From the IMG/VR virus record IMGVR_UViG_3300029305_004519, positions 77,541 to 135,466 of that record: a DNA stretch of 57,926 nucleotides, one strand, 5' to 3'. This document shows positions 10,646 to 57,926 of this stretch, piece by piece (position 1 is the stretch's first letter; each line of letters opens with the position of its first letter). This DNA is from a virus. The notes under the pieces were generated by a model. The model searched no databases and was not told the origin of the DNA. It saw nothing but the letters and a program-made list of their open reading frames with translations. The position numbers were made by a program, and so were the translations under genes.

Positions 10646-11761
10646 ATGTTAGAAGAAGCAGAATTAATAGAAGACAAAATGCAAGAAGCATAGATTGAGC
10701 CTCCTTCTCCAATTAAATTAGACTATACTCTTAAGACATGCGACGAGCGCGCGGCCTTGGTATAGCGCATCATTGAGTCAACGCCGGGCGCCCAACTATC
10801 AAATCGATATCTTGAAATTCTCGGTGATTACATCATGGGCGCCATTACCAAAGAAGAGCGCAAAGAAAAATTATATCTAACAGACAACCGCCTTGTAACT
10901 ATTAATAAGCGCGAAACCTCATATGAAGGCATGGTTGAAAAATTTGAAAATGGTGAAGATGGTATCTACAATCTCATCACCAATGACAAAAATATTCTTT
11001 TTTAGCCTAAAGTTAGCATAACAGATCAAGATATTGAAGAAGTACCAGGTCTAAAAGAGTTGCGCGCGGCCATGAAAGAAATTGAGGCAGAGGGAAAAGC
11101 GGCAACGGGCAGGCGCAAATACCTATTGAAAAAACAATTAATTGAAATGCGCCGCGATCAATACGTGCTTAAAAACGCCTATAAGCCACCGATGGCGCTT
11201 ACCCCTTCAGCGCGCGCCATTAATAAAATAGATTTATCTGAGCGGAGATACATTGATGAGAATGGAGACCCACAAAGCACCGGTTTAGTTTCATTCTTTA
11301 ATCCCAAGCATATCTCTGCGCTTTTGTGCAACTATAATGCGTTAAAGATTGAAACCAAAGGGCGCTATTGGGACGATTTCTTTTATTTAATGGAGGCGTT
11401 CGATGAATTAATAAAATAGGCGCTGGCGCCTTACCCTATGTATCAAGAGCTAGTCCGTATGAAGATAGACGGGGCGCCCAACAGTGAAATTCAATAGGCG
11501 CTCGCCGAACACTACAATACCTAGCACTCGGCGCAATATATCTCATCCTTATGGCGAAATAAAATTCCAAAAATCATTGCGGAATAGGCGCAAAACGATT
11601 ATTTAATATGGCATTACCAAAATGAAGAAAAGGGACAATGGAAAAAATGTTCCTGCTGTCATCAATATAAACTGGCAAATGCGCGCTTCTTTTCCCGTAA
11701 TAAGACTTCAAAAGATGGTTGGTATAGTATATGTAAAGCCTGTAGAAATAAAAAAATTTAA
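10646..11761 (+). CDS. Hypothetical protein (371 codons including about 6 in-frame TAG) with a C-terminal Cys-rich zinc ribbon (CSCCH...CKAC)
   Basis: A single frame runs from ATG 10646 to TAA 11759-11761, interrupted only by TAG. ORF-track pieces such as 11060..11419 are in the same frame. Confidence 0.6.
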
Positions 11762-11825
11762 TCTCATTTTTATAAAATATGATTAATTAAATTTTTAGTT
11801 TACTACGAAAGGAGAATTAAAACCT

Positions 11826-13037
11826 ATGGCAAAATATCATTGTGATAAATGTAATAAAGAATTAGAAGAAGTTAACTTCTATAAATATCGAGATGGCAGT
11901 TATGTAGAACTGTGCAAAAAATGTTTAACTATGCACGTGGATGTATTTGATCCTTCTACCTTTACCTGGCTATTAGAAAAATTAGATGTACCTTATATTC
12001 CTCAAGAATGGAATACAGTTATTGAAAAAAAGATGGCGCGCAAGCCCGATGCGCCGATCTCTCACTCAGCTGTTTTCGGCTCCTATATATCAAAAACTAA
12101 ATTAAAGCAATGGAAAGATTTCTATTGGAAGGATAATGATCTTATTTAGGAAAGATTTTTTGCGCAAAGCGCCCAGCTGGATGAGGAAAAGGCTGAGCTT
12201 GACGCGCTGTATCAAGAACAATACGAAGCAGGCTAGATTTCTGAAGCACAATATAAAACTTTAACATCGCCAAAGGCGCGCAATGACCAAATGATGAATA
12301 TGCTTGCGGCGCAAGGTCCTTATCTTGGAGAAAATAACGCTTATGACGAGAATTTCTTTATCGACGAGTCAGAGCTACCAGATCCCGCAAATTCGCTTAC
12401 ACAAGAAGATAAAATTTATCTTGCTATGAAATGGGGTAAATTATACAAACCAAATGAATGGGTTGAGCTTGAAAAAGATTATACAAAAATGAAATAGTCC
12501 TTTGATATTCAAGATGCAGACTCTGAAAATACTCTGATTTTATTATGTAAGACAAATCTTAAAGCTAATCAGGCGATTGACTGCGGTGATATTGAAGGAT
12601 TCCAAAAGTTATCTAAAGTTTCAGAATCATTGCGTAAGTCTGCTAAGTTCACCGCACAATAGAACAAAGATGAAAAAGGTGATTACGTAGACTCTATTGG
12701 TCAGCTTATTGCAATATGCGAAAAAGAGGGCTTTATTCCTCGCTTTGCAACTGATATTCCTCAAGATAAAGTAGATATGACTTTGCGTGATATGAACGAA
12801 TATGTGCGCAAACTTGTAACTCAGGATTTAGGATTTGGACAATAGATCGAAGATTCGTTGAAGAAGATTATGATTCAAAATGAAATGAATAAAGAGGCGG
12901 AAGCTCGCTAGGAAGAAGAGGGCGATGATTATGATCCTTACGCACCTACTGAATTAGAAGATGAAGATATCGTGGATTATTATGATAATATTATGAATTA
13001 GAAATTATATGATAGTAATATCTATGACAAGGGGTGA
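11826..13037 (+). CDS. Hypothetical protein (403 codons, TAG-containing) with an N-terminal zinc ribbon (CDKCNK...CKKC) and an acidic C-terminus; possible packaging-associated or small-terminase-like protein
   Basis: Frame 0 from 11826 to TGA 13035-13037. Track ORFs 11826..12149 and 12291..12497 are in frame. It sits immediately upstream of terL. Confidence 0.5.
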
Positions 13038-13042
13038 GGCTT

Positions 13043-14788
13043 ATGGCACTACAAGATTTACTAGACCTTTCTCTTGATCGAAATTAGTAGAAAATTGGAT
13101 TATCCGAAGAACGCGTGAAGGCGCAGATTCCTATCGTGCGCCAGTATGTTGCCTATTGGCGCGAGTACCCTGATATGTTCGTAGAGTTTCTATGTGGACC
13201 TAATCCTGAAAATTTTTCGCTTTTCTTTTATTAGCGCTTGTTTTTACGTGCAGTAATGCGCCATAGATATGCCTATGCAACATTTCCTCGTGCCTATTCA
13301 AAGAGCTTTTTATCTGTCCTAGTATTAATGCTAAGATGTATTCTTTACCCAGGCAGTCATTTATTCGTAACCACAGGCGGAAAAGAACAGGCGGCGGGTA
13401 TTGCTAAAGAAAAATCAGACGAGCTTTGTAAGCTTATACCTGGCTTACGCAATGAGCTCGATATGACAAGAGGAAAAACTAAAACTAGTAAAGATAATAT
13501 TGAATTGATCTTTAAAAATGGTTCAAAATTAGACATTATGGCGGCGCGCCAGTCTTCTCGTGGTAAGCGTGCAACCGGTGGATTGATGGAAGAATGTATA
13601 TTAATTGATCAAACGCTGCTGAATGAAGTGATAATTCCTACAATGAATGTAGACCGAAGATTATCAGACGGCTCCCGAGTAGAAGAAGAAACTGTTAATA
13701 AATCGTAGATTTATGTTACTACTGCGGGGTGGAAGAATAGTTTTGCTTATGAAAAGCTTATAGAGCTTCTTATTCGTCAAATTATCTACCCTGATGAAGC
13801 TATTGTTATGGGTGGAACCTGGCGTATTCCTGTTATGGAAAAGTTGCTTAAAAAAAGTTTTATAGAAGAGCTTAAGCTTGATGGTACTTACAATGACGCG
13901 TCTTTTAGTCGAGAATATGAATCAGAATGGTCTGGAGATGCAGAAAATGCATTTTTCTCTGCGGAGAAATTTGACAAACATCGTTAGTTGCTATAGCCTG
14001 AATATGAGTATTCTGGACGCACGTCTAAAAATGGATATTACGTACTTGGCGTCGACGTAGGTAGATTAAAATGTACTACTGAAGTTTGTGTCTTTAAAGT
14101 CACCCCTTAGGCGCAGGGCGCCGCTCTAAAATCTTTAGTCAATATTTATACTTATGAAGCTGAAGATTTTGAAGCACAAGCCATTAAAATTAAGCGCTTG
14201 TTCTATAAATACAAAGCGCGGGTTATTGCCATTGACGCAAATGGTTTAGGAGTAGGTTTAATCGACTTTATGACGAAAGGACAAGAAGATCCAGAAACTG
14301 GAGAATATCTATCTCCTTTTGGCATAGAAGGCGGAACTTCTGATGAATTTAATGAGCAATATAAAAAGATAAAAGGGCCTGGAGTAGAAGAAAATGCTAT
14401 GTATTTAATTAAGGCTAACGCGCCAATCAATACAGAAGCTCATACTTATGTTCAAACGCAATTAGTTGGTGGAAAAATTAAATTATTAATTGATGAAACA
14501 TAGGCTAAAACAAAATTAATGACCACTAAAATGGGTCAAGAAATGGATGCATCTAAACGAGCAGAATATTTGAAACCTTTTACTTTAACTACCATTTTAC
14601 GAGAATAGCTATTAAATTTGGTAGAAGATAACGAAGGAGTAAATATTATTTTAAAACAATCCTCTCGTAGCATTCCTAAAGATAAATTTTCTGCTTTTGA
14701 GTATGGACTATATTATATTAAACAAGAAGAAGATCGTAGTAGAAAACGTAAAAAGAGAAATATATCTGAGATGATGTTTTTCTCTTAA
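13043..14788 (+). CDS. terL: Terminase large subunit (581 codons; two consecutive TAG near the N-terminus and at least 7 TAG in total)
   Basis: Motifs YVTTAGWKNSFAYEK and ARVIAIDANGLGVGLIDF (RNaseH-like nuclease domain). Frame 2 is continuous to TAA 14786-14788. Confidence 0.8.
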
Positions 14789-14853
14789 CCAAAAATTTAG
14801 GACATTTTTAAATAAATGATATTATTCAATTTTTATATAACAATAGTAAAGGA

Positions 14854-15219
14854 GTGAGAGATATAAAAGCAAGCCGAGGCGAAATTAAAATTTGTGATAT
14901 TTTAACTGAAGCTGGCGTCTCTTTTACTGAAGAATATTCATTTCCAGATCTTGTGGGACATACAAAAACGCCATTGCGTTTTGATTTCGCAATTTTAGAT
15001 GATAATGGAGAAGTTGACTTTTTAGTTGAGTTTAATGGAATACAACATTATCAACCTAAATCTAAATTTGGTGGCGTCGCAGGGTTGCGACAATAGCAGT
15101 ACTATGATATGTTAAAAAGAGAATATTGTAAGAAGCATAATATTCCCTTGGTTATTATTCCTTATTATGACGAAGGAAGAATTAACTACGACTATATTTT
15201 TACAGCTGCGGGATATTGA
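14854..15219 (+). CDS. DUF559/Vsr-like PD-(D/E)xK endonuclease-fold protein (121 codons; GTG start, uncertain), possibly a free-standing homing endonuclease
   Basis: RFDFAILDDNGEVDFLVEFNGIQHY matches the DUF559 core. One in-frame TAG. Ends at TGA 15217-15219. Located between terL and the portal gene. Confidence 0.5.
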
Positions 15220-15261
15220 CAAGATCAAAATTTTTGAATATAATATTTAAAGAAAGAAGAG

Positions 15262-16878
15262 GTGCTTAGCTTGAGTAATAGTAGAATAGAAGAGATTCAT
15301 AGCAAAGGCTTTGATATAAGCACCCCGAAACGTATTCCAACTGAAGGAAACATTATTCCAGAAATGGATTATTCAAAAATAAAAGTAGGAATTAAGCATC
15401 TTGATGATGCAATTATTAATTTAGGTTCCTATAAGAAGCTTAACCCTAGAATGACCAAAGAAAATATTCAACGGGCAATCTCCACTGGAGATGTAGATTT
15501 TATGAGAGAAGCTTCTGAATTTTATTTTAAGGTTAGCGGAATCTATTCAAGATTGTGCAAACACCTAGCTAATTTTTATAGATACGATTGGTTTATTACT
15601 CCTTTTACCCCATCTGATAAAGTCACTCCTGACAAAATCATAGATGGTTTTAATAAGAGCTCGCAGTATATAGATACTTTCGGCGCCAAGGAATACTTTG
15701 GCGAAACGGCACTCAAGGTAATGCGCCAAGGCTGCTATTATGGGTATATTATCCGTGATACAGATACCGCGCAAGTCCAAGAGCTGCCGCCGAAATACTG
15801 CCGCTCTAGATATAGTGTAAAAGGGCGCCCAGCGGTCGAATTTAATATGAAGTTTTTTAATGACTTATATAAAAATGAAGATCAGCGTATTCGTGTTTTA
15901 AAAATGTTTCCAAGAGATTTTCAAAAAGGCTATCTTGCTTTTACAAGAGGCGAGTTATTGCCTGAATTCCCTGGGGATACTGCGGGATGGTATTTACTAG
16001 ACCCAGAGTGTACAATTAAGTTTAATATAAATGGTGAAGATACTCCACCTTTTGTGTCAGTTATTCCTCATATTATTGATTTAGATGCGGCACAAGAGTT
16101 GGATAGAAAAAAGATGGCGCAAAAGCTATTGAAAATTATTATTCAAAAAATGCCATTGGATAAGAATGGCGATTTAATATTTGATGTAGATGAAGCGCAA
16201 GAACTTCACAATAATGCAGTTAGAATGCTTGGAAAAGCAATCGGCATTGATGTATTAACTACTTTTGCAGAAGTAGAAGTTGCAGATATGGCCGATAAAA
16301 ATTCTGTAGCTAGCATCGATGAGTTAGAAAAGGTTGAAAGAACCGTTTATAATGAATCTGGTACTGCATAGAACTTATTTAACACAGATGGTAATATTGC
16401 TCTTGAAAAGAGTATTCTTGATGACGAAGCGAATGTATATAACCTTGTACTTCAATTTTAGTCATTTTTAAATTATCTTATCAAACCTTTCAATAAAAAT
16501 CCAAAAAAGTTGTATTATAAAGTAGAAATACTTCCTACAACAATTTATAATTACAAAGATATGTCAAAATTATATAGAGAGTAGGGCGCGACTGCAGGCT
16601 CAAAGTTACTTGCAAGCGTTGCTCTTGGGCAATCTCAAGCTTCTGTTTTAGCAACAGCAAGATTTGAGAACGATATTTTAGATGTATCTGATCTTTTCCA
16701 ATCAAAACAACAACGAGAAGAAGCTAAAGCAAAATAGCAAACTTCAAATAATGTCAATCCTGCAGGAGCTCAAAAAAAGCAAGAAGAGGTAATTGACAAA
16801 AAAAAGGTTGGAAGACAAGAGAAACCAGATGATCAAAAAAGCGAAAAAACAATTCGTAATCGTGAAGCTATGAATTAA
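15262..16878 (+). CDS. Putative portal protein (538 codons; TAGs cluster in the C-terminal quarter)
   Basis: Position after terL and size. Track ORF 15262..16371 continues in frame through TAG codons to TAA 16876-16878. Confidence 0.5.
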
Positions 16879-16895
16879 GGAGAGGAGAAGTACAA

Positions 16896-18302
16896 ATGCA
16901 TAAATCAGTTGCTACGATAAACTCTCCTGAGTTTATCAACCTACAACCTCTTGATATTAATCCTTTAATGAGCGCATGCGAAATTAAGGTGTTATATGTA
17001 GGGGAAAATCGTAACAGATCCTTTATCACCAAAGAAGTCGCAACAGATATGGCTAAAACCTTACGAGGCGCGCCTATCGTGGGCTACTATAAAGAAGAGA
17101 AAGAAGATTTTAGAGACCACGGGCGCGAAGTGATCATTGATGATGAAGGTATTAAATTTAACTGCAAAACCGTTCCTTATGGTTTTGTTGCTCCAGATGC
17201 AAAAGTATGGTTCAAGGAATTTGAAGATACTAATGATTTTGGAGAAACTATTGTAAGAGAATATCTTATGACTACTGGATATTTGTGGACTGGTCAATTT
17301 GAAGAATGTAAGTCTGCTGTTGAGGGTGATGGCAAGCCGCACTCAATGGAATTAGATGAAGAGTCTTTACAAGGACACTGGGAAACTAATACTCGTGGCA
17401 TGGATTTCTTTATTATAAATGACGCAATTTTTTCAAAACTTTGCATTTTGGGAGATGACATTGAACCTTGTTTTGAAGGTTCTAGTGTTACTGCGCCAAA
17501 TGTTAGTGCGTCTTTCACGAAAGTAGATGATACTTTCAGACAAACATTATTTACCATGATGCAGGAACTTCAAACTGCATTACAAGGAGGTCAGCAAATG
17601 AACAATGATGTTGAGAATGTTGTTGTTGAGGAGCCAGTAATTGAGTTTGGTGCAGAGCCAGTATTTGAGCCTGTTGTCGAACCTAATTTTGAGTCTGCGC
17701 CCGCGGCATCGACAGAATCTTCTTTTGCTGCATCAGAAGAGACTCCAGTAGTGGATAATACCCCTGCTGAGCCTGTTGTTGAAGAGGCGCCGGTCGCTGA
17801 AGGGTCTGCAACCGAGCCTGAAGTTGAAGATCCTCAACCTACTGTTGAGCCAGAAAACGAGCAGGATCAAACGCATAGCGCGGAAGAATTTGCACGTCTT
17901 CAATCTGAGCTTGAAGAGGTAAGAGTTGCCTATTCCAACCTTGAGACTCAGCTTCAAACTCTTCAAACAAATTATGACACTCTTCAATCTGCTCATGCAG
18001 AACTTGTTGAATTTAAAAGACAAAGTGACGATGCAAAGAAAGATGAAATGATTGGCAGATTCTACATGCTTACCGATGAAGATAAGGCAGATGTTTTATC
18101 TAATAAGGCAAACTACACTGTAGAAGAAATTGAAGAAAAACTTTCTGTAATTTGTTTCAGAAAAAAGGTCAATTTTGAATTAGAGGATAACTCTAAAAAT
18201 AATAATAAGATAGAGCAACCAGCTGTGACATTTAATATGTCCAACCTTGGTGCTTCCAAGCCCGATTGGTTAATCGCGGTTGACAATGCAAAAAATAATT
18301 AA
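16896..18302 (+). CDS. Putative scaffolding / prohead protein (468 aa; acidic Pro/Glu-rich linker and a C-terminal coiled coil; no TAG)
   Basis: ORF track entry. GGAGAGGAG Shine-Dalgarno. Position between portal and capsid genes. Confidence 0.45.
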   Translation: MHKSVATINSPEFINLQPLDINPLMSACEIKVLYVGENRNRSFITKEVATDMAKTLRGAPIVGYYKEEKEDFRDHGREVIIDDEGIKFNCKTVPYGFVAPDAKVWFKEFEDTNDFGETIVREYLMTTGYLWTGQFEECKSAVEGDGKPHSMELDEESLQGHWETNTRGMDFFIINDAIFSKLCILGDDIEPCFEGSSVTAPNVSASFTKVDDTFRQTLFTMMQELQTALQGGQQMNNDVENVVVEEPVIEFGAEPVFEPVVEPNFESAPAASTESSFAASEETPVVDNTPAEPVVEEAPVAEGSATEPEVEDPQPTVEPENEQDQTHSAEEFARLQSELEEVRVAYSNLETQLQTLQTNYDTLQSAHAELVEFKRQSDDAKKDEMIGRFYMLTDEDKADVLSNKANYTVEEIEEKLSVICFRKKVNFELEDNSKNNNKIEQPAVTFNMSNLGASKPDWLIAVDNAKNN

Positions 18303-18322
18303 TTTTAAGGAGGACATATAAC

Positions 18323-18847
18323 ATGGCTACTATTAAGCGTATTGGTTTTGGTCAAGTTGAGCCTAACCATCTTTCCGCTCAAAGAAATGGTCAAGTTTAC
18401 GGACAGCTTCCTTGCAATGAGGAAATTAAGGTTCTTGAGAATGGTCAGTTCGTAAAGTATGACTATGCTAATGGCGAAGTAAACTTCACTGGCGCCGGCG
18501 AGTGGATGCTCGTTATGAATGAAGTTAAGTTATATGATGATTTCTGGAGAGAGTCTTATAAGGATTTTGCTCTTCAAGCATCTAATTTTGATAAGGGTGT
18601 AATGACTCCTCGCGTATTAAAGACTATGCCTGGCGATATTTACACAACTAACTGCCTTGAGAAGGGAAATACTTCTGGTAAGGCTGAACTCGTTGGCACT
18701 GAAGAGATTGAGGTTGGCACTGAGCTTAAGATTAATGCTCAAGGTTTCCTTTCTACTGCAGGAACTAGCGATATCGTATTCCAAGTTGTAAAAGTTTACA
18801 CAATGCCTGATGGCCAACAAGGCGTCAAGGTAATGCGTATTAAATAA
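18323..18847 (+). CDS. Putative head protein (174 aa; no TAG)
   Basis: ORF track entry. AAGGAGG Shine-Dalgarno. Confidence 0.4.
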   Translation: MATIKRIGFGQVEPNHLSAQRNGQVYGQLPCNEEIKVLENGQFVKYDYANGEVNFTGAGEWMLVMNEVKLYDDFWRESYKDFALQASNFDKGVMTPRVLKTMPGDIYTTNCLEKGNTSGKAELVGTEEIEVGTELKINAQGFLSTAGTSDIVFQVVKVYTMPDGQQGVKVMRIK

Positions 18848-18865
18848 TAAGGGAGGGAAATAGTA

Positions 18866-19909
18866 ATGGCATTAAGTAGAGAAAGTTTACGCACATTAGC
18901 ATTGCAGGCTGCAAATGCTAATCCTTCTGCTCCCGTTGCTTACTCATTCGAGGGTTAGAACTATAGCTGTGCGGATTTAAATCGCGCAGTATGCAAAGAG
19001 TTAAATGAACTCATGGGCACTTATGCTCTGTGGAGAGAGAATAAAAACACTGTATTTGCTCTGTTAGAGGAAGTTATTTCTGATAAGCTTCCTGCTAAGG
19101 TAATGGCGCAATATGGCGCTTTCGCTGACGTTAATATTTATCGTCAAGGTGAAAAGCCTATTTTCGTTCAAAGAATTACTGAAGCTTCTAAGAGACGTGC
19201 TAAGCAGTTCGTTACTAAGGTAGGACTTGCTGGTCGTTACGAAGTGTTCAAGCTTGATGGTCGTAGCTATGAAGTAACAACTTCTGCTATCGGCGCTGCT
19301 TGTTAGGTTGCTATTGAAGAATTGTTAGATGGTCGCGTTGATATGGCTACTTTGGTAGACATTATCATGGACGCAATGGATGAAAGAATCTATGCTGAGA
19401 TCGCTAGCGCTTTAATTGCTACTGTTGAGACAATTCAAGCTAGCAACAAGGTTGACGCAGATAGCTTTGTTGAATCTGAAATGGATAGATTACTTGCAGT
19501 AGCTGATACTTATGGTAACGGCAACGCAGTGATTTATTGCACTTTTGAGTTTGCTTCTCAAATGCTTCCTGATAATGCTTGGGAGCAAGGCAGAATGTCT
19601 GACGCAATGAAGAATGAATACTGGACTAATGGCCGTCTTGCTAACTACAAGGGCCACCAGGTGATTGTTCTTCGTCAGTCCTTTACTGATGAAACCAACT
19701 CTGTAAAGGTAATTGATCCTTCTTACGCTTGGATTATTCCTGGCGGAGCAGACAAGCCTGTTAAAGTTGCTTTCGAAGGAGAGACCTTAATTAAGGAAGT
19801 AGAAGGCGATGACTGGTCTAAGACTATTCACTTCTACAAGAAGGTTGGCGTAGCGGCTATCGTAAATAATGATATTTGCGTATATCGCAACAAGTCGCTT
19901 ACAGTCTAA
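18866..19909 (+). CDS. Putative major capsid protein (347 codons, 3 TAG)
   Basis: AGGGAGGG Shine-Dalgarno. Track ORFs 19013..19306 and 19322..19909 are in the same frame as ATG 18866. A strong terminator follows. Confidence 0.45.
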
Positions 19910-19930
19910 TTAAATAACTGAACTTTAATG

Positions 19931-19977
19931 AGGGAAGTGAAGAAGGTGGGTCTTCCCTTCCCTCGTATTTTTAATTT
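19931..19977 (+). terminator. Rho-independent terminator after the capsid gene
   Basis: GAGGGAAG...CTTCCCTC stem followed by GTATTTTTAATTTT. Confidence 0.6.
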
Positions 19978-20002
19978 TGGAGATAAAAGGAGATTTATAA
20001 AT

Positions 20003-20587
20003 ATGTTACAAAATACAGATAAAGTTAGAGTCGAAAATAGACAAAACGCAATTGTTTGTTATCGAGTCCCTGATGAAAAGATTACTCGTCACTTTGAAAA
20101 ATATGAGACTAAAGAAATCTCTATGGACGAGTTGCGTAGAGCTGTGCAAGTTGCTGGTACTAGAAGATTAATTCAAGATGATTTAATTATTCATAGTAAA
20201 GAAGCAGTAGATGAATTATTCCCAAGCGCTGAGCCAGAATATTTTTATAATGCAAAAGATGTTGATTTTCTTTTAGAGAGAGGAACTTATGATCAGCTAT
20301 TAGATGCTTTAGATTTTGCGCCAGATGGAGTGATTCAATTAATTAAAGATGAAGCGGTTAGAACTTGTTTGAACGATATGCGTAAAAGAGAAGCTATTTT
20401 AGACAGAACTGGTTTTGATGTAACTAAAGCAATTGAGAATAGACGCTTGGCGCAAACCGAGGAAAAAGAAGAAGTAAAGGTTAGACGTACGGCCCCTATC
20501 ACTGATACGACAACAGAAACTTCTGCCGATGCGCCTGCTAGAAGAACTACCGCTCCTAGATTTAAAGTGAATATTTCTCAATCATAA
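20003..20587 (+). CDS. Hypothetical structural protein (194 aa)
   Basis: AAAGGAG Shine-Dalgarno. Internal Met of track ORF 19928..20587. Confidence 0.45.
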   Translation: MLQNTDKVRVENRQNAIVCYRVPDEKITRHFEKYETKEISMDELRRAVQVAGTRRLIQDDLIIHSKEAVDELFPSAEPEYFYNAKDVDFLLERGTYDQLLDALDFAPDGVIQLIKDEAVRTCLNDMRKREAILDRTGFDVTKAIENRRLAQTEEKEEVKVRRTAPITDTTTETSADAPARRTTAPRFKVNISQS

Positions 20588-20618
20588 TTTTAATATATAA
20601 GTTAAGGGGTGATTTACG

Positions 20619-21653
20619 ATGAATATTATTGTATCATCGCTCAACTCTACAGATGTGCGTCTTACCAATTATGATTCTAATATGGTATATGACATTAACA
20701 CTGTAAAAATATTCATAGCCAAAGACTTGGGCGCGACTCCGTTATCTTTAAATCTTTTTCGACAAAAGAATGAAGATATTGCTTTAATAGTTAACCCCTT
20801 ATACTCTTTAGGTATTATATAGAATACTGCTTTTGATAAGAATAATTATTATGGCTATGTTTTAACTACGGATACATCTATACCTAGCGCAAGCTATTAG
20901 GCTACATTAATTTTTGATGAAGCTGAAGTGGTACTAGAGTCTCCAATCAATTTTGCTAACGATCTAGAAGATGAACACGATCCTTTTGTTATTAATGAGC
21001 GTACTATAACAGTTGGCGAAAAAACCGTGATTATTGCTGAAGATTGTTTATCGTAGCAAATTGAGTTTTTAATTAAAGAAAAGTATGATGGAGTTTCTTT
21101 TTTAGATGACTCTAAACAAATTTATATAGATTATATCCCAGTTGGCTTTCAACCTTTTGTAGATGATTAGGGTAATGAAATTAATTTCTTATCTTCAGAA
21201 ATTAAAGAAAAAGAGCCTATTATAAGAAACGGTGAAAATTGGCTAAATCTTAAATGGAATGTTCCTTATGATTTTTCTAAAACTGCTGGTATTGTAAAAT
21301 TTGCATTAACAGTATTAAATGTTGATGGAATGAGTTATATATGGCAAACGAGTCCTGCTTAGATTACGATTCAACCTAATCTTGGGCGCCGCCCCGTGGT
21401 TCCTGTTTCTTCGACACAAGAGAGTACTTTATTAGCAAAAACTTTGGAAAGAATTAATAATTTAGAAGAATTTGCTACAAATATTGATAATGTTTCATCA
21501 ATTGATGCAGGGAATGGTACTATTACTTATACTACAAGAGATGAGAATGGGGTTGCAGAAGAGACTATTTCAATTATAGATCTTTTTGCAGAAGGTTCGG
21601 ACGAAGCAGAAGTTTTATTTGGCGGCGGTGGCGCGCCGGTTGAGGAGGGATAA
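20619..21653 (+). CDS. Hypothetical structural protein (344 codons, 5 TAG)
   Basis: Track ORFs 20619..20822 and 21396..21653 share a frame. AAGGGGTG Shine-Dalgarno. Confidence 0.5.
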
Positions 21654-21655
21654 AA

Positions 21656-22126
21656 ATGACACAACTATCTGTTATTTATGATTCTTTCTTAGGACAAATT
21701 ACTGATGATATGTATATGGAACTAACAAAAGATGAAACATATAATATGTTGTTTGATCTTTTTGAAAATTCATTACATTGGTTTGAATTTCCTCGTTTCA
21801 ATCTTTACGGATATGATGCAGAAATGCAAGAGTATGAATATGATTTAACACAAGAAGAAGTTAAAATTATTGCTATGTATATGATTGTAGAATGGATTGG
21901 ATAGCAATTAGCGAGTATTGAAGTTACTCGTATGAAATATAGTGGCAGCGATTTTAAATTTACTTCTTAGGCAAATCATATGCATAAACTTAAGGATTTG
22001 CAAAAGGAATATGAAAGAAAGGGATTCCATTTACAGCGTTTATACAAGCGTAGAAAAGCTGATAAAAATGGAATTATGAGATCAACTTTTGGTAGCATTA
22101 TGTCATCTTCTTTTAAGGAGGATTAA
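21656..22126 (+). CDS. Hypothetical protein (156 codons, 2 TAG)
   Basis: GGAGG Shine-Dalgarno. Ends at TAA 22124-22126. Confidence 0.45.
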
Positions 22127-22128
22127 AT

Positions 22129-22443
22129 ATGTTATTAAAGTATGATTTTGATATTGATAAAGATGCTATTGTGACTAATTTAAAAAGAGTTACAAATTAG
22201 ATCTATAAATTATTACCTATCAGAGAAGAAGGCGCCGATTGGCAAAAACCTTTAACCACCATCCTCGAAGAGCTATCTGGCGCCGATAGGTTGTTTATAT
22301 AGTCACAGCCTTTAATGTATAAATTGATTTGTAAATTAGAGGGATTATTCTCTTTAACTGGCGCAAATGACTTTATGACTTATAGAGGTGTGATCTTTGA
22401 ATGCTTAGGGATTATAGGAGAGTTGTCTAAATGTCTGGATTGA
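22129..22443 (+). CDS. Hypothetical protein (104 codons, 2 TAG)
   Basis: AAGGAGG Shine-Dalgarno. Its TGA overlaps the next gene. Confidence 0.45.
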
Positions 22444-23435: not shown

Positions 23436-23455
23436 GATAAAAGGAGTGTTAGATT

Positions 23456-24773: not shown

Positions 24774-24802
24774 TTAAAAAAATTTTAAGGAGGATAAGTC
24801 CT

Positions 24803-25690: not shown

Positions 25691-25706
25691 TTTCATAGTA
25701 TTGGAG

Positions 25707-45154: not shown

Positions 45155-46789
45155 ATGACTAATACCACTTTTAATACTCGCATTCTGTTGAAGTATGACC
45201 TGTATACGAATTGGACTACTATCAATCCCGTATTAAAGGCCGGTGAGGTTGCAATTGCAACTATTCCTGCGGCTGAGGGTGCAACTTCTTTAAACCACAA
45301 CAGCGTTACTCTTCCTCAGGTTTTAATTAAGGTTGGTGACGGAACTTCTCATTATAACACGTTGCCTTTTGCTAGCGCACTTGCGGCAGATGTGTATCCT
45401 TGGGCAAAAGAGAGTCTTGAGCAATTTAATACTCGAGTTGGGGATCTGGTTAGAGGTTTAACTTATGTAAAAGCAGATCTGTATAACAAGAGTGAAATCG
45501 ATGCTTTCTTAGCTCAGTATTATAAGAAGACTGAAATTGATGCATTGACAGGCTCATTGACAGACCTGAATACAACAAATAAAAACAATTTAGTTGCTGC
45601 AATTAATGAAGCCCTTCAAGCTGTTGAAGTTGGTGGTACAGGCTCTGTTGTTAGTGTTGTAAAAGAAGATACTCCTACTGAAGGATCTCAAGCTACCTAT
45701 AAAGTAACTCAGGGTGGTAACACTGTTGGAGTGAAAATTGAAATTCCTCAAGGCTATGATGAAACTGCGCTAGCAGGTCGTGTAAGCGCCATTGAGGGAG
45801 ACTACGTCAAGGCAGCAAATATCGCTGATTTTGCTACTCGTACAGAGGCAGAGGGCTATGCCAATGCTAAAGACGAGGCTATTGCAGCTGCTAAGAAAGC
45901 CGGCGACGATGCCCAGGCAGATGTGGATGCATTAGCTGATCTGGTAGGAACTTTACCTGAAGGCGCAACTGAAACTACGGTTGTTGACTATATTAATGCT
46001 AAAACTGCTAACATTGCTTCTAATGATACAGTTAATGGCATTGATGAAAGATTGGCCGCAGTGGAAGGTGACTACTTAAAGACTGCTGATAAAACTGCAC
46101 TGCAAGAGCAAATTACAGCTAATGCAAATGCAATTACTACTTTAACTAATGGCGTAGACCCTGAAAAGATTGACGGTCTTAATGACTTAGTTGAATGGGC
46201 TGATACGCATGCTCCTGAAGTTGCTAGTATTAAAGAAGATATTGAAGCAAATACTACTGCAATTGAAGCTGAAGTAACTAGAGCTACTGGCGCAGAAGAA
46301 GCGCTTGCTGGTCGCGTTAAGAATTTAGAGGATAATACAGCAGGCTATGCAACGACTACTGAAGTAGCTACTGCAAAACAAGAGGCTATTGATGCTGCTG
46401 CTGGAGATGCAACTACCAAGGCTAATAAGGCTTTAGAAGATGCACAAGCAGACGCGGCAGAAAAATATGAGCTTAAGGGCGTTGCTCAAGGCCTTGTTGA
46501 TGGATTGGGCGCAACTTATGAAACCATTAATGGCGCTGCTGGTAAGTATGCAACTATTGAGAATCATAATGCCCTTGCAGAGCGCGTTACTGCAACTGAA
46601 GGTGTTGCAAACGCAGCATCGGCAAAAGCTAACGCAAATGAAACTGCTTTCAATGAATATAAAACTGCTAATGATGCTGCTGTGGCATTGAAGGCCGATA
46701 AGACAGAGTTGTTCTCTGGTAAAATTGATGATTTAACTCAAGACAACTATATTATTCTTTATTGTGGCACTGCAGAAGAAGTAATGTAA
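45155..46789 (+). CDS. Tail fibre protein (544 aa; same N-terminal module, then a long Ala-rich coiled coil; no TAG)
   Basis: ORF track entry. RILLKYDLYTNW...GEVAIA...KVGDGTSHYNTLPF. Confidence 0.6.
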   Translation: MTNTTFNTRILLKYDLYTNWTTINPVLKAGEVAIATIPAAEGATSLNHNSVTLPQVLIKVGDGTSHYNTLPFASALAADVYPWAKESLEQFNTRVGDLVRGLTYVKADLYNKSEIDAFLAQYYKKTEIDALTGSLTDLNTTNKNNLVAAINEALQAVEVGGTGSVVSVVKEDTPTEGSQATYKVTQGGNTVGVKIEIPQGYDETALAGRVSAIEGDYVKAANIADFATRTEAEGYANAKDEAIAAAKKAGDDAQADVDALADLVGTLPEGATETTVVDYINAKTANIASNDTVNGIDERLAAVEGDYLKTADKTALQEQITANANAITTLTNGVDPEKIDGLNDLVEWADTHAPEVASIKEDIEANTTAIEAEVTRATGAEEALAGRVKNLEDNTAGYATTTEVATAKQEAIDAAAGDATTKANKALEDAQADAAEKYELKGVAQGLVDGLGATYETINGAAGKYATIENHNALAERVTATEGVANAASAKANANETAFNEYKTANDAAVALKADKTELFSGKIDDLTQDNYIILYCGTAEEVM

Positions 46790-47800: not shown

Positions 47801-50329
47801 ATGAAATTTGATAATAAACATTTTGTTTCGGGAGAAAATTTGCAGCATTATAATGAGCAAATTCAAGACCGATTAAATGATAAGGTAGATATTAAAGACT
47901 ATCCCTCAATAAAACAAGGGGAAGGAGAAAATAGTATTATTGCAAATGATATTGCAATTAATCAAGCAATAGGAGATAACTCTATAGCGTTTGGTACGAA
48001 TACATTGGCAGGCGCCAAGGGCTATTACTATTAGGCAATTGATACTACAAATAAAAAAATTTATTTAAGTCATGAGTAGATTCTATATCCTGTAATCACC
48101 ACAGAAGATTTGACTGATACTACTTTTGATACCCCGGCCTATGAGGTCGGACGCAAGTTTTGCATTATAAATAATAGCAAGTCTAACATGATTGCTAGCA
48201 TTGTTAGCATAGAAAATAATGTTATAACTTATGATGTGCCTCTTTCAATCTTTGACAATGGAATTGTTGAGATTCAAGCAGATTATATCGAACCAGACGA
48301 TTATGCTTTATATGTTCCAGAACAAGCTAGTATAGGTGAGGTTACTGTTAAATTAAATGCAGTTGCTCTTGGAAATGGATCTATTGCGGCAGGTAATGAA
48401 GCTTATGCATCTGGTAGAGCTTCGTTAGCATATGGTGATTATGCATATGTTGAAGGCTATGGTTCACGAGCTGCATATGCGGCACATGCTGAAGGAGTTC
48501 GTACAATTGCAGAATCTCAATGTCACTCTGAAGGGTATGAGACTTAGGCGCTAAAAGCATTCTCTCATGCAGAAGGTTATGGTAGCGTTGCAGGCATGAA
48601 TCGCGCCCATGCAGAAGGTAGTTTAACATATGCGCTTGGAATTGCTGCTCACGCAGAGGGCTAGACTACTGTTGCAGAAGGGCAAGGCTCCCACGCAGAA
48701 GGAACTGAAACTTATGCTAAAGGCAAACATGCGCACGCCGAAGGGTATTTAAGTCAGGCCCAAGCAGAAAGCTCACATGCTGAAGGATATTTAGCCATAG
48801 CTAGTGGTATTTAGGCCCATGCGGAAGGTAACTAGAGTGTTGCTAGCGGCTAGGGCGCCCATGCAGAAAACTATGGAAATACTGCAAGTGGTAAATATTC
48901 ACATGCTGAGGGAGTAAGAACTATTGCCTCAGGTCGAGCTGCACATGCAGAAGGAGAGAACTCTTAGGCTGTAGGAGAGAGATCTCATGCTGAGGGATAT
49001 CAAGCTACCGCCTATGGAAAAGGATCTCATGCTGAAGGACAATCTTTGAATAAAGCATTGACTGTTTTAGAAGGAGTAGAGTTAGACGCTTCTAAAATTA
49101 TTGAAAAATGGAATGAGAGTAAATTTAATTTAGCTTTAGGAGAGTATGCTCATACTGAAGGACTTAATACTTTAGCTTTAAACAAGGCTGCTCATGCAGA
49201 AGGATCTGATACCAATGCTGAAGGAGCTTACTCCCACGCTGAGGGAGTAGGATTTGCTTCTGAATCCTACACAGTAGGCTGGGGGGAGGAGGCTTATGAT
49301 GTTTCGATAGAATTTCAAGGAGCGGCTCGAGGTTTAGCCAGCCATGTCGAAGGAAACGCCACAGTGGCCTCTGGAGATTATTCTCATGCCGAGGGGGTCA
49401 GTTTCTTATTTGCAGAGGAAGGACTCCGTGGAGTACAACAAACAGAAGCTCGGGGGTATGGTGCCCATGCAGAGGGACAAGGAACTTTAGCCATTGGAGA
49501 TTATTCTCATGTTGAAGGAGGCCTTGGCGATGGAGACGATGAAGAATTTGATGGTTCTAAAAGAAGAACTAAGGCGGAAGGAATAAAGTCTCATGCTGAA
49601 GGTTCTGGTACCTGGGCGCTTGCAGATGCGGCTCATAGTGAAGGACATCATACAGCTGCGTCTGGAAAAGGTTCTCATGCTGAAGGTAGTGATACTTCTG
49701 CTAGCGGAGATTATTCTCATGCTGAAGGCTATAACACATAGGCTCTTGGTGAGGGCGCACACGCCGAGGGAAAAAGTTCTATTGCGAAGAATAATTATTC
49801 TCACGCAGAAGGCAACATGACAAGAGCAGAAGCTTCTTGTGGGCATGCAGAAGGTAATAACTGTAGAGTCGGCGCTTTTGATAGAGGTTCTGTAAGTGCA
49901 GGTGGTAATACTAGCGCAGGTGCGTATGGACATGCGGAAGGTAATGCGACTATTGCATCAGGAGTTGCTGCTCATGCTGAGGGTAAATTAACTTATGCAA
50001 GCGGAGAGGCTTCTCATGCGGAAGGTCTATCAACCATAGCCGAGGGAAAAGCATCTCATGCTGGAGGTGAATACTCAGAAGCTCGAAAGATTCATGCTTT
50101 TGCTCATGGTTTCCATGTTACAGCTGACGCCCCTCGGCAAGTAGTTGTAGGGTCATGGAATGTTCCAGATGAAGAAGCTTTGATGATAGTAGGAAATGGA
50201 CAAGATTTTGGCAGTAAAAACAATGCTTTTACGATATATCCTAATAGCATTAAAATTGGAAACGTTGAACTGACAGCTGAAAAGCTTCAAAAGTTAATTG
50301 ATTTTATTGACTCTGTTGAGTTGAATTGA
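47801..50329 (+). CDS. Repetitive beta-roll-like fibre/adhesin (842 codons, about 10 TAG) built from about 30 copies of a roughly 14-aa unit containing SHAEG
   Basis: Frame 2 is continuous through track ORFs 47801, 48110, 49046 and 49817. The repeat xAxGxxSHAEGxxT is reminiscent of YadA-head or Hep_Hag-type repeats. Confidence 0.6.
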
Positions 50330-53109: not shown

Positions 53110-54123
53110 ATGGGTTCACATAATAACGAAAATTGGATAGAATATGATTCAACTGGACATCGATATGGGTTAAAGCTGCTTGAAGGGCCTATTATTCAAG
53201 TAAATACTTGTGGAGTTCAATCAATTACATTTACAGTTTAGAATATGTATGCAGAAGATTTAACTCCTAATTCTTAGGGAAGGGGTCCTACATGGTAGGG
53301 AAAAGATATCACTTGTACATTTTATCTTTATACAGATGAAGGCGACGATAAAGACACGGTATTAGATTCTCAAATTGTAGATTTAAAAGCAAATGCTATT
53401 TATACTATTTCTTTTTATTCAGCAAATCTATATGAAAGACAATCATATGTTGATTGGAAATATTGGTTTAAATTTAGATTTCAACATTAGACTTGGCCAG
53501 AAAGTTTTTATACTATGCCTTATGTGTTGCCTTTGGAAAAATTCCCTTTCCCAGCGACATTAGATTCATTGCCCACATCTGATAATTTAATATTATATAA
53601 TAATTTCAATAATCAAGAAAAAATTTTAATGATTTCTTATAACCCTACAATTACAAATTACGCATAGGTTAAAAATGAATCATTAATTTAGACTTTAGGT
53701 TCATAGTATCCATTTTATAGATGTAATGGATTAGCAAATTATAGATAGTTTTCAATTGGAGGTTTATTATCTTATCACGGGGAAGAAGAAATACGCAGTA
53801 CAGACTTTTCACTTATTTCTTCAGCTGAACTTAATACGCTATCTTTAACAGATAATGACTACTATACTCAAGAGCTTAAAAGAGAAAAAACATTCCGAGA
53901 TCGTGCATTAAATTTATTATATTCAAATAATCCTTTTGTATTTATTTCTCCTACAGAGGGGTAGCTAATTATTTAGCTAACTAAAGTGTCGTTGACCCCT
54001 AATTAGTAGTTAGGACGCACTATTTGGAGTTTTACAGCATAGGCTACTGAAATAGATTCTTTTAACGCCTGCACCCCTTTATTACATAAGCTTAATATTT
54101 TAAAGGTTGGTGAAGCCACATGA
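53110..54123 (+). CDS. Hypothetical protein (337 codons, about 14 TAG)
   Basis: AAAAGGAG Shine-Dalgarno. Frame 1 is open to TGA 54121-54123 apart from TAG. Confidence 0.4.
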
Positions 54124-56121
54124 GTTTATAGATATCAATAGAACAATTAATATAGCTTGATGAAATGCGCAATACGGTTTTGTAGGTGCGCATTTCTAGT
54201 AAAACCTTTGGCGCCGCCAATGCTGAATATATCTAGGGCTAGACGACTGGTGGTAATATTAGTATTAACGGATCTTCATCTGTGCGCCGAACTGGTAGTT
54301 TAAGTATGATAGCTACTGCTACCAATAAAAATATTACTGCTGTTGATAATGTTATTTCTATTAATAAGATAATTAAGATTGAAGTAGGACTTCAACATAA
54401 TATAGTAGGCCTTGCAAACCCTCATTGGTTTAATCTTGGTCATTTTGTTATTAGCAATGCTTCCATTACGCGCAATACTGCTGGATTTAATATTCAACTA
54501 TCTCTTAAAGATTTGATGGCTAAAGTCAATGGTGAGTGCGGCGGTATGTTGCCTGGAGGCATGACGCATAGCCCAATCTATGTGCGCCAAGCAGATGGAA
54601 TAATGAAATCAGAACCGGTCCAATATGAAGCGCTTATTAGAACATTGATGACTGAATATACAGACTTTGTCAGTGATGATTTAATTATTAATCTTGAACG
54701 ATCTAATTTAGTAGAATTGCCTGATGCTTTAAAACCAGCAGGAGATACTAGTAAATAGTATGGAATTAAAAACACTGTTCGTTGGGGAAGTTCAACAGAG
54801 ATATATGCCACGTATACGGAAGTTAGTTCTACAAATGATACGAAAGTATGGAGACTCAGTACCACTGAGTCAGATGACTCTATTGCGTATAATTTTAATG
54901 ATAATATAGGATATGTTTTAACAGAATTTGTTTATCCAACTAAAAATGATTTAACCTCTAATGCTGGAGAATCTGTTGGATCCGTTTTAGATAAAATAAA
55001 AAATAGCTTGGGCAATTATGAATATTATTTTGATGTTGATGGCAAGTTTCATTTTGAATAGGTGCCAAACGGTATTAATGCAGGTAGTACACAAGATGAT
55101 CTAATCCTGGCTCTTGCTGAATCTTACATTAATCCGATACCTGATGATGATAACGGCCCTTACTATACTTTTGATTCTGCACTATTAGTAAACTCTTATA
55201 GTAATACCCCCTCATATGAATCAATTAAAAATGATTTAGTTGTATGGGGTAAGAGAGGAGATAATGGAGGCGTATTAAGATATCGCTTATTGATTGATAA
55301 TAAACCGACAATGCCTACCGACACAAGTTATCGAGTGGTATTTTATACCGATCCATATGGAATTCCTCGATTGCGCAAGCCTATTGACGCTGATTTGGAG
55401 ACAGCAATTGAAACTATCAATATTACAGATACCACTGATTGGCGTTATTATTACTATTTAAAATATGTAATTAACGATTCAGATAATCCATATAAATGTG
55501 GCGCCGAGTTAGAAGAAGAGTTGCCTAAAATTATGGACGTTAGAACTGGACACTTTTACGCTTCTGGTGTCGCAGGAGATACTAATATCCTTAAGCTACT
55601 CAATAGCATGAATTATTTCATTGACATAATCGATCCTAATGAAATTGAGATAGAGCGAGTCAAAAATGCATTAAATGAGTTGACAATTACAAAAATTGGA
55701 CGTCGTACGAAGTCTATTTAGAATAATGACGTAAATACTTTATTTAATCCGCAATTCCCAGATGTTGCTTATATTGAAATGGGCACTGATAAGACAAATG
55801 ACTGGACTAGAGCAGCGATAGGAGAGGGATGGGATTTTAGTCAAGTTCCGCAACATTTATATGAACATATGGAAATTGGTACTGCTATTTATTCAGCATA
55901 CGATGCAATTCGTATTATGTTGAGTGATGTATTAAGTTATAACAATGCAATATCTTTATAGACAATTCCAATTTACCATTTAGATGTTAATAAATTAATT
56001 GAAGTGGAAGATGATGACACTGGTATTCATGGAAAATATTAGGTAAATAGTATTTCTGTACCTTTAACACCAAATGGATTAATGAATATTACAGCTCGAC
56101 TTATGGTAAATAAAATTTAAT
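54120..56121 (+). CDS. Large tail/baseplate-type structural protein (667 codons, about 10 TAG)
   Basis: ATGA coupling with the upstream gene. Frame 0 is continuous through track ORFs 54282, 55062 and 55779 to TAA 56119-56121. Confidence 0.45.
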
Positions 56122-56130
56122 ATAAAAAAT

Positions 56131-56160: not shown

Positions 56161-56177
56161 TGAAAGAAATGATTTAA

Positions 56178-56240
56178 TTGATTTTTAATTGCATAGTGGT
56201 AAAATGATTTCCTCATCATCAAGATGAGGGTTTTTTTATT
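56178..56240 (+). promoter_or_regulatory. Extended -10 promoter (TTGATT-16-TGgTAAAAT) immediately followed by a perfect terminator hairpin (CCTCATC-atcaa-GATGAGG plus a T-run). The arrangement looks like an attenuator.
   Basis: The same TGGTAAAAT -10 sequence occurs at the two divergent promoters near 10.3 and 10.6 kb. A second promoter-like site TTGATA-18-TAATAT with a TATCAAAATTTGATA palindrome lies at about 56263-56302. Confidence 0.4.
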
Positions 56241-56337
56241 CTCCTGTTAAATTTCAAAATTTATATCAAAATTTGATAAATGATTTAATTAAATTTTAAT
56301 ATAAGTTTGAACAAGAGTGAAAGGAGAATAAAACTCA

Positions 56338-56820: not shown

Positions 56821-56831
56821 GGAGGTATATA

Positions 56832-57080
56832 ATGGCTTATAATGTAGATCCTATGCATTTGCTATTGCAAATTAAACAAGGAAAAAACCCACAACAATTA
56901 ATGATTGATATTCTCGAAGGAGAAGCATCTTAGAACCCTATAATGGGAAACCTTTTGTCTATGGCAAAAGATAATCGTACAGCGGATATTGAAAAATTCG
57001 CTCGTAATCTTGCTAAAGAGCAAGGCATTGATTTTGATAAAGAATTCAGTAGATTCAAAAAGCAGTATTTTGGACTCTGA
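56832..57080 (+). CDS. Hypothetical protein (82 codons, 1 TAG)
   Basis: AAGGAGG Shine-Dalgarno. Confidence 0.4.
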
Positions 57081-57110
57081 TTCTAAATATATTTTAAAGG
57101 AGGACATAAT

Positions 57111-57926
57111 ATGTTCAACACATCAAATGGATATTCTTTATCCGACATTGCTGCCGTAACAGGTGGAAACAGAGGCAACGGTGGTTTTGGTGACGGCTTC
57201 GGAGAGAACGGCTGGTGGATCATTCTTCTGTTCCTGTTTACAGGCTGGGGAAGAAATGGTTGGGGCGGAAACGGCGGATCTGAAGGTGGATATGCTTTCA
57301 ATCCTTACTTCTATGGATTTGGCTCAGCACCTTGCGCTACCAAGGACGACGTTCGCGCCGCAGTAGATCAGCAAACCTTAATTTCTAAGCTTGACAACCA
57401 AACTTATGGCTTAGCTGATAGCACCTATGCATTAAGCAATGCAATCACAGGTGGATTCCATGGCGTAGATAATGCTATCTGCACTCTTGGATATCAAAAC
57501 CAAGCTGGCTTCACAGCTCTTGGCAACCAAATCGCAGCTTGTTGCTGCGACACTCGCGCAGAAATCGCTGACGTAAAGACACAGGGAGTTATTAATACTA
57601 ATACTCTTGCTTCTCAGTTGGCTGCATGCTGCTGTGACATTGAGAAGGCAAATATGGAAAACAGATTTGCTGCTCAAACCTATAACTGCAATACTCTTCA
57701 GGCTATTGACAAATTAGGTGATAGAATCATTGACTTCATGACGCAAGATAAGATTGCATCTCTTACTGCAGAGAATCAGTCTCTTAAATTCGCGGCATCA
57801 CAAGCAAATCAAAATGCATTTATCACTGCAAATCAAGAAGCTCAAACTGCAGAGTTAATTCGCAGACTATCAACTCCGTGCCCAGTGCCAGCATATGTGG
57901 TACCAAACCCTAATTGCTGCTACGAT
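57111..57926 (+). CDS. Gly-rich, membrane-anchored protein with repeated AACCCD motifs. The C-terminus runs off the window edge. No TAG, and GC-richer codons than its neighbours.
   Basis: AAAGGAGG Shine-Dalgarno. GNGGFGDGFGENGWWIILLFLFTGW is followed by two IAACCCD / LAACCCD repeats. Confidence 0.45.
   Translation, partial: MFNTSNGYSLSDIAAVTGGNRGNGGFGDGFGENGWWIILLFLFTGWGRNGWGGNGGSEGGYAFNPYFYGFGSAPCATKDDVRAAVDQQTLISKLDNQTYGLADSTYALSNAITGGFHGVDNAICTLGYQNQAGFTALGNQIAACCCDTRAEIADVKTQGVINTNTLASQLAACCCDIEKANMENRFAAQTYNCNTLQAIDKLGDRIIDFMTQDKIASLTAENQSLKFAASQANQNAFITANQEAQTAELIRRLSTPCPVPAYVVPNPNCCYD

Follow-up and report, generated by a model that had tools for sequence, protein, structure and literature searches.

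The DNA examined here is a 57,926-nucleotide (nt) stretch, below called the window, which covers positions 77,541 to 135,466 of the virus record IMGVR_UViG_3300029305_004519. It raises the question why the long rightward reading frames from position 10,646 to the window end are interrupted again and again by one stop codon, TAG, and how the proteins they encode could nevertheless be made. We consider it very probable that the sequence belongs to an SPbeta-like siphovirus that uses a code-15-type reading (TAG as glutamine) in a Bacillota host with the standard code, and that the recoding serves as a translational gate.

The stop codons themselves are telling. When TAG is taken as a sense codon, the open reading frame (ORF) content of the + strand (stop to stop, at least 150 amino acids) rises from 19,680 to 46,989 nt and the longest + strand ORF from 547 to 2,902 codons, whereas reading TGA or TAA as sense yields only 20,772 and 24,990 nt, respectively. 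From 10,646 to the window end 35 + strand genes could be delimited, together covering about 95% of the block. Their 15,053 codons include 213 in-frame TAG but no TAA and no TGA (nor, therefore, any TGA of the code 4 kind, TGA to Trp), against 1,266 TAA, 1,083 TGA and 630 TAG among the off-frame triplets of the same genes. The start codon is ATG with an AAGGAGG-type Shine-Dalgarno sequence upstream in nearly all of them, and 30 of the 35 pass a strict test for an AGGAG-type motif. Of the 34 complete genes, 24 terminate in TAA and 10 in TGA, a tally that is a consequence of the way the ORFs were delimited and not independent evidence. With 213 TAG, 393 CAA and 76 CAG, TAG makes up 31% of the glutamine-type codons; UAG is one of three glutamine codons in the late block, where CAG has been largely displaced by it. 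The next base is a purine after 68% of the TAG and after 65% of the CAA and CAG codons, i.e. there is no difference in context. An assembly error can be excluded, because 11.6 kb and 11.5 kb of the window sequence recur in two other metagenome samples (JGI 3300032167 and 3300018878; contigs L009 and L010) with 100% and 99.99% identity.

Homologous proteins run straight through the interruptions. PHROG profiles span the TAG sites (terminase, portal, sigma-factor-like, YonD-, YonB- and YomU-type proteins), and in a local tblastn comparison with TAG masked as X the alignments were continuous through the TAG positions for all comparators, namely the phages H1, VRE9_4, Geobacillus virus E3 and KKP_3916 and the faecal contig MT836163. 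Gaps fall on only one of 39 TAG positions in the comparison with MT836163 and on 35 of 1,699 aligned cells in that with 52 IMG/VR relatives that lack in-frame TAG. A Shine-Dalgarno sequence with an in-frame start follows within 20 codons of only three of the 213 TAG (1.4%, versus 4.9% at control glutamine codons). TAG is thus a sense codon in the late block, and the only stop codon to be read in this way.

An annotation made earlier from the letters of this DNA, the first-pass annotation, had already described frames broken by TAG only and genes ending in TAA or TGA, and had expected coding content to favour TAG as sense, homologues to align through TAG and few new starts to follow it; all of this was borne out, and its coordinates for the tape measure and fibre genes are correct, as is its reading of terL and of the SHAEG-repeat gene. 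Its statement that recoding extends throughout a rightward structural block needs adjustment: TAG is used as sense there, but not uniformly, since eight of the late genes are TAG-free, and the block opens with non-structural genes (sigma-factor-like and YonG-like).

Which amino acid is inserted can be approached by comparison. The closest GenBank relative with the standard code, MT836163 (large terminase subunit, TerL, 71% identical), has Q at 18 of 39 TAG positions (46%), compared with a background of 3.5% and with 38% conservation of literal Q. Summed over all standard-code comparators, the BLOSUM62 score at TAG positions is highest for Q (142), followed by E (38); the other candidates listed, K, S, N and T among them, come out below zero. 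Likewise, Q is the plurality residue of the 52 relatives at 21 of 49 TAG positions (43%) and at 73 of 159 literal Q positions (46%). TAG-recoded relatives swap TAG and the glutamine codons CAA and CAG at shared sites; one of them, L018, has TAG 13 times and Q 14 times at TAG positions of the window. Within the SHAEG repeats, too, literal Q and TAG occupy equivalent positions (VAEGQGSHAEG versus VASG-TAG-GAHAEN), so that the argument drawn from these repeats in the first-pass annotation holds, as does its "most likely Gln". The amino acid at TAG would therefore be glutamine. We judge it quite improbable that TAG is sense but stands for something else: glutamate, inserted by a Gln-type tRNA that is charged by a non-discriminating glutamyl-tRNA synthetase (GluRS) without amidation, lysine, or one of those amino acids (Ser, Leu, Tyr) that are carried by tRNAs with a long variable arm. 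E and K are indeed next in frequency at TAG positions, the variable-region inserts of 15-25 nt in three of five suppressor tRNAs of relatives (see below) are real, and "Pyl" is the label that ARAGORN gives to any CUA anticodon. However, Q is as frequent at TAG as at literal Q positions in both comparisons, literal Q, too, is most often replaced by E and K, and neither the BLOSUM62 sums nor the interchange with CAA and CAG would be expected of another amino acid.

The genes of the block to which these counts refer are the following.

10646-57926, + strand: rightward late block, 35 genes, TAG used as a sense codon
10646-11761, + strand: first recoded gene, 371 amino acids, 7 TAG, residues 54-370 matching phrog_5767 ("sigma factor")
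11826-13037, + strand: YonG_N-type protein, 403 amino acids, 7 TAG, phrog_3314, Pfam label on the L202 orthologue
13043-14788, + strand: large terminase subunit (YonF type), 581 amino acids, 9 TAG, from a PHROG profile and TerL homologues
15262-16878, + strand: portal protein, 4 TAG, phrog_2739
16896-18302, + strand: YonD_N-type protein, 468 amino acids, TAG-free (0 of 19 glutamine-type codons, p = 8e-4)
18866-19909, + strand: YonB-family protein, probable major capsid protein, 2 TAG, phrog_4088
24803-25690, + strand: YomU-type tail tube or virion structural protein, TAG-free, phrog_2729
28183-36873, + strand: tape measure protein, 2,896 amino acids, 62 TAG, motif ALAQTIAGTR present
37018-42285, + strand: fibre or tail protein, 1,755 amino acids, 18 TAG, with a collagen-like Gly-X-Y stretch
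47801-50329, + strand: SHAEG-repeat protein, 9 TAG, phrog_25468
53110-56120, + strand: two heavily recoded tail- or baseplate-type genes, 13 and 10 TAG, phrog_30026 and phrog_32343 / phrog_1887
57111-57926, cut by the window end, + strand: Cys- and Gly-rich protein, TAG-free (0 of 16 glutamine-type codons), phrog_16490
16896-18302, 18323-18847, 20003-20587, 24803-25690, 27556-28086, 42403-42735, 45155-46789 and 57111-57926, + strand: the eight TAG-free late genes

The tape measure motif is intact, as had been reported in the first-pass annotation, and the Gly-X-Y stretch of the 1,755-residue fibre protein lies at residues about 1046-1086 (GDKGADGADGKDGADGADGKDGDPGK). The role of the YonB-family protein as probable major capsid protein follows from its position and size; its gene has two TAG versus none in the L202 orthologue. 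The use of TAG varies strongly between genes. In the tail- or baseplate-type pair at 53110-56120 TAG makes up more than half of the glutamine-type codons (13 of 20 in 53110-54123), whereas none of the 83 glutamine-type codons of the eight TAG-free genes is TAG (none of 14 in 45155-46789), compared with the block average of 31%. In most of these eight genes the guanine plus cytosine (G+C) content exceeds that of the neighbouring genes. The eight may be spared from suppression because of high expression, or may have been acquired recently; it is plausible that the most abundant virion proteins (YonD-type, capsid and tail tube) are spared. At a larger scale, G+C is 0.39-0.45 in the early block and 0.28-0.44 in most of the late block (window positions 1-10000 versus 10001-57926), and the sign of the GC skew is opposite in the two blocks, following gene orientation.

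With respect to the identity of the phage, the terminase is of the SPbeta YonF type, TerL matching YonF-annotated phage genes, and Pfam recognizes YonD_N, YonB and YomW on the identical contig L009 and YonG_N, YomX, YomV and YomU_Tube on the related contig L202. The TerL type and the match in Yon/Yom module order thus point clearly to a large SPbeta-like siphovirus of the Bacillota with a YonF-type terminase, of whose genome of some 130 kb the window would represent about 45%. IMG/VR holds at least 184 related stretches, the near-complete ones being 100-137 kb long. In the protein collection, full-length 581-residue TerL sequences 91-97% identical to that of the window were found (P0121-P0160); for the one checked, L202 10001-11746, the DNA does not translate to the protein under table 11, and some public pipelines therefore already call TAG as Gln.

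The proposal of a Firmicutes-type host in the first-pass annotation is supported, indirectly, by four observations: the hosts of cultured relatives (Enterococcus, Geobacillus, Alicyclobacillus, Bacillus, Lactococcus, Clostridium), the binning of TerL-related contigs mostly with Bacillota metagenome-assembled genomes (Erysipelotrichaceae, Bacilli, Anaeroplasmatales, Eubacteriales, Lachnospiraceae; a few of the contigs are obviously mis-binned), the strong Shine-Dalgarno sequences and the near-consensus promoters. A scan of genome collections with TerL gave binned metagenome contigs only, with no clear integrated prophage and no firm host. As to the flanks, an exact 41-mer from the right end of the window had no match in IMG/VR, a search leftward with an L010 protein found no relative, and a metagenome search with the right-end protein returned only relatives of at most 74% identity with no suppressor nearby.

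The leftward genes behave differently from the rightward ones, and the two blocks meet in a short control region.

1-10240, - strand: early block, leftward, with 26 confident calls of small genes, orphans for the most part, none of them with an in-frame TAG
5221-5559, - strand: MazF/PemK-type toxin gene of the early block
10294-10608, between the blocks: divergent control region carrying a pair of extended -10 promoters close to the consensus

Early genes were taken from a start preceded by a Shine-Dalgarno sequence to the first stop of any kind, without overlap, which gave 26 genes and 2,166 codons. Sixteen end in TAA, ten in TGA and none in TAG. They contain 72 CAA and CAG codons and no in-frame TAG, where about 33 would be expected at the rate of the late genes. 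As a stop, TAG is absent from all 26, compared with its use in seven of 45 genes of the standard-code Enterococcus phage H1. Since the early block is free of TAG both as sense and as stop, it reads identically under the two codes; such code-neutral genes fit a phage that meets both ways of decoding while it infects a standard-code host. The absence of TAG from the early block had been noticed in the first-pass annotation, whose estimate of about 40 early genes is reduced to 26 by our count. The only sizeable ORF of the early block that ends in TAG is one of 130 amino acids at 4824-5216 (- strand), following the MazF/PemK-type gene. It is a candidate gene only, with no homologues in PHROGs; the next gene, 3990-4553, follows in the same frame with neither TAA nor TGA in between, so that suppression would fuse both. 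In the control region, a consensus scan located two identical promoters (TTGACA-17-TGnTAAAAT) that face outwards, at 10322-10294 (- strand) and 10580-10608 (+ strand), the latter 38 nt upstream of the first recoded gene.

The code is not constant among the relatives. In-frame stops were counted inside the alignments of window proteins to 80 IMG/VR terL loci, in place of ORF-coverage ratios, which were too noisy for the relatives. By this measure 28 loci are TAG-recoded, 36 are TGA-recoded, 14 have no in-frame stop (standard code) and two are ambiguous. TGA of the relatives stands opposite Trp of the window in 313 of 425 aligned cells (26 of 55 distinct positions), in line with a code-4-type change, TGA to Trp, in these phages. 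Sisters among L021-L065, with TerL about 74-82% identical, have 3-22 in-frame TGA and no TAG in the part that corresponds to 10646-25700 of the window. In a neighbour-joining TerL tree the TAG lineage of the window is nested among TGA-recoded and standard-code lineages (about 75-82% TerL identity).

A candidate for the molecule that decodes UAG was found in relatives. A search with the DUF5662 protein, the last gene reached in the 130-kb record IMGVR_UViG_3300029305_006221 (TerL about 91% identical), yielded five syntenic contigs, in all of which the DUF5662 and RNase H genes are immediately followed by a tRNA whose anticodon is CUA.

L194, 11326-11400: CUA-anticodon tRNA
L196, 11194-11285: CUA-anticodon tRNA
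L198, 11288-11386: CUA-anticodon tRNA
L200, 11186-11275: CUA-anticodon tRNA
L204, 11338-11412: CUA-anticodon tRNA

The anticodon loop reads CUCUAAA or CUCUAAC, and the four tRNAs checked score 52-56 bits with the Rfam tRNA model (L200: 53.6) against a threshold of 29. They start with UGGGG or UGCCC; in the four whose sequences were read (all but that of L204) residue 73 is G and the CCA end is encoded, and the 1-72 pair is mismatched in three of the four, features which we take to be Gln-type after the tRNA-Gln of E. coli. Three of the five have the inserts of 15-25 nt in the variable region. In genome orientation the locus precedes terL by about 44 kb and belongs to the leftward replication module. 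The L200 tRNA is carried by the contig ena:ERZ27297789:k141_5427314 (130,355 bp), whose TerL is 95% identical to that of the window (P0144). This contig has the same early and late layout. In its first 15 late genes TAG occurs in frame 39 times and TGA and TAA never; the early genes have no TAG stops, and the capsid and tube genes are TAG-free. The first-pass annotation had envisaged a CUA-anticodon tRNA or a gene acting on release factors elsewhere in the genome. The former exists in the five relatives, though not in the window or in L010; a search for the GGQ motif gave no release-factor gene in any locus examined.

Further unusual tRNA-like genes occur in the arrays of TAG-recoded relatives. 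L102 has at 6584-6734 a tRNA of 151 nt whose anticodon region encloses another tRNA-like arm, and others lie at L102 7259-7327 and 8357-8456 and at L100 9808-9882; they include a 100-nt tRNA with a 38-nt loop in the anticodon region and a tRNA-Ile-like gene with an 8-nt anticodon loop. In two relatives, leftward genes just past the position of the right end of the window also contain TAG: a RuvC-like resolvase with 4-6 TAG (L180 12291-12800 and L182 11932-12441, - strand) and NrdD with 1-2 TAG (L180 15068-18142 and L182 14923-18060, - strand). In this lineage, then, recoding reaches beyond the rightward virion genes.

Taken together, the expression of this phage most probably runs as follows. 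Host ribosomes would translate the early and middle genes by the standard code. Early and middle transcription would also yield the suppressor, a tRNA-Gln-like molecule with a CUA anticodon from the replication module outside the window, which would outcompete release factor 1 at UAG and lead to insertion of glutamine. Full-length terminase, portal, tape measure, fibre and sigma-factor-like proteins would be made only after UAG is decoded, and the recoding would thus act as a translational gate on virion production. The presence of few or no TAG in the YonD-type, capsid and tail tube genes presumably spares these the cost of incomplete suppression.

Several points weigh against this scheme. 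No tRNA or other Rfam family was detected in the window (ARAGORN, Rfam), nor a tRNA in L010, which extends 5 kb further left, so that the suppressor of this particular phage has not yet been seen in these sequences. Roughly 81 kb of the record ending in 006221 were read, and among the 21 tRNAs there is none with a CUA anticodon; this stretch stops a few hundred bases short of the expected suppressor locus; a regular-expression search for anticodon hairpins (NTCTARN) found nothing in the loci of this record and recovered two suppressors of the phage phAss-1 as a positive control. The putative sigma-factor function of 10646-11761 derives from a PHROG label, searches of Pfam and of PDB sequences with this protein having given no match. 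The division into early and late is read from gene content and orientation, and the tRNA-Gln-like identity of the relatives' CUA-anticodon tRNAs is suggested by their acceptor ends. In many Bacillota, Gln-tRNA is formed indirectly, through GluRS and GatCAB, which bears on how a CUA-anticodon tRNA would be charged.

A more elaborate scheme, in which the suppressor system goes beyond an ordinary tRNA, would have the code switch itself drive late transcription (from tRNA to sigma-like factor to late promoters) and a swappable suppressor cassette flip the code. It is suggested by the fixed tRNA site with its inserts, by the sigma-like gene being the first to contain TAG and by the interleaving of codes on the TerL tree, but we regard it as unlikely, and a gate on late transcription through the sigma-like gene 10646-11761 behind its host-type promoter is speculation. 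Far less probable still is that UAG is already a sense codon of the host and the phage mirrors it, with no temporal switch. No suppressor tRNA was seen in the phage's own sequence, and code-25 phages of code-25 hosts provide a precedent (10.1101/2021.08.26.457843). Against a recoded host stand the early block, with no TAG where about 33 are expected and with TAG avoided as a stop as well, an avoidance that is sensible only if both readings occur in the course of infection, and the CUA-anticodon tRNAs that close relatives encode themselves. The TGA-to-Trp or standard-code sisters at about 75-82% TerL identity are also hard to reconcile with it, and we know of no bacterial lineage with a UAG-to-Gln code. 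Finally, a standard-code mosaic of short genes or a decayed prophage with TAG as true stops, to which the many ORFs called under table 11 and the similarly fragmented GenBank annotation of the relative phAss-1 might point, deserves practically no weight and is rejected because single profiles and homologues extend across the TAG sites and restart signals follow so few of them, whereas decay would have brought all three stops and frameshifts and many samples contain the sequence in conserved form.

Recoding of late genes together with suppressor tRNAs has been described before (10.1101/2021.08.26.457843, PMC9523058, PMC10607447), as the first-pass annotation had stated for table 15-like recoding restricted to lytic genes; moreover, a cousin group of the window phage has been published as code 15. 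This is the group of phAss-1 from the human gut (GenBank OQ749652; "Caudoviricetes code 15 clade" at NCBI), a TAG-to-Gln phage with three CUA-anticodon suppressor tRNAs for which the genus Phassvirus was proposed (Babkin et al. 2023, PMC10607447). Like the window phage and its relatives, phAss-1 comes from the gut, has a genome in this size range (about 135 kb) and encodes a YonF-type terminase and a tape measure protein of great length. It shares the divergent layout of leftward early and rightward late genes and the tRNA arrays; its terL, portal, tape measure and fibre genes likewise use TAG for Gln, and its leftward replication region has CUA suppressors whose acceptor and T arms resemble those of the tRNAs described above. 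It differs in TerL, which is only 42% identical, and in the absence of a megablast match in the phage collection. Whereas its suppressors lie by nrdD and inside the tRNA array, in the lineage of the window the suppressor follows DUF5662 and RNase H; the site beside nrdD, which holds two suppressors in phAss-1, is empty in L180 and L182, and neither this site nor the tRNA arrays of the window's relatives contain one. Members of Phassvirus share 80-86% nucleotide identity (PMC10607447), and by the TerL and megablast comparisons the window phage lies far outside the proposed genus.

The clade Agate of Borges et al., a TerL clade with a bootstrap of at least 95% (about 127 kb; cattle and pig samples), comprises standard-code, TGA-recoded and at least two TAG-recoded members, its standard-code and TGA-recoded genomes being above 80-90% average nucleotide identity; Firmicutes or Bacteroidetes hosts are predicted for such clades, and 40% of TAG-recoded genomes encode a suppressor tRNA (10.1101/2021.08.26.457843). 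The recoded late structural genes, the mixed codes among close relatives, the genome size and the animal gut habitat are all shared with the window phage, whereas the recoded structural and lysis genes of Agate are spread over several modules and those of the window form one contiguous block of about 47 kb. As the comparison was by description only (size, habitat, mixed codes), membership in Agate is only a lead.

The work to be named for code 15 in crAss-like and Lak phages is reportedly that of Ivanova in 2014. Metaproteomic proof of code 15 in these phages has been published (Peters et al. 2022, PMC9523058). They share TAG-to-Gln late genes, standard-code hosts and phage suppressor tRNAs with the system proposed here, but have Bacteroidota hosts and unrelated virion modules, unlike the window with its strong Shine-Dalgarno sequences and SPbeta-type Yon/Yom genes. 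The nearest cultured phages (Enterococcus H1, VRE9_4, EF1, Geobacillus virus E3 and Alicyclobacillus KKP_3916; TerL 44-46% identical) have the same order of sigma-like gene, terL, portal, capsid, tube, tape measure and the phrog_30026/phrog_32343 pair, and also leftward small early genes; unlike the window phage they use the standard code and have no in-frame stops.

The principle, the assignment to Gln, the restriction to late genes, the suppressor tRNAs and the code flips between close relatives are thus all published, and the window adds a well-resolved SPbeta-like example that would infect Bacillota: a new divergent lineage, and no new principle. The practical consequence for annotation is immediate, as under table 11 about 47 kb of this contig are miscalled as well over a hundred fragments, which resolve into 35 genes, including that of the 2,896-residue tape measure protein, when TAG is read as Gln. 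With phages that apparently use TAG-to-Gln, TGA-to-Trp and the standard code within about 60-95% TerL identity, and with a suppressor tRNA at a fixed address, the group may offer a convenient system for studying changes of code in phages and the timing of the switch.

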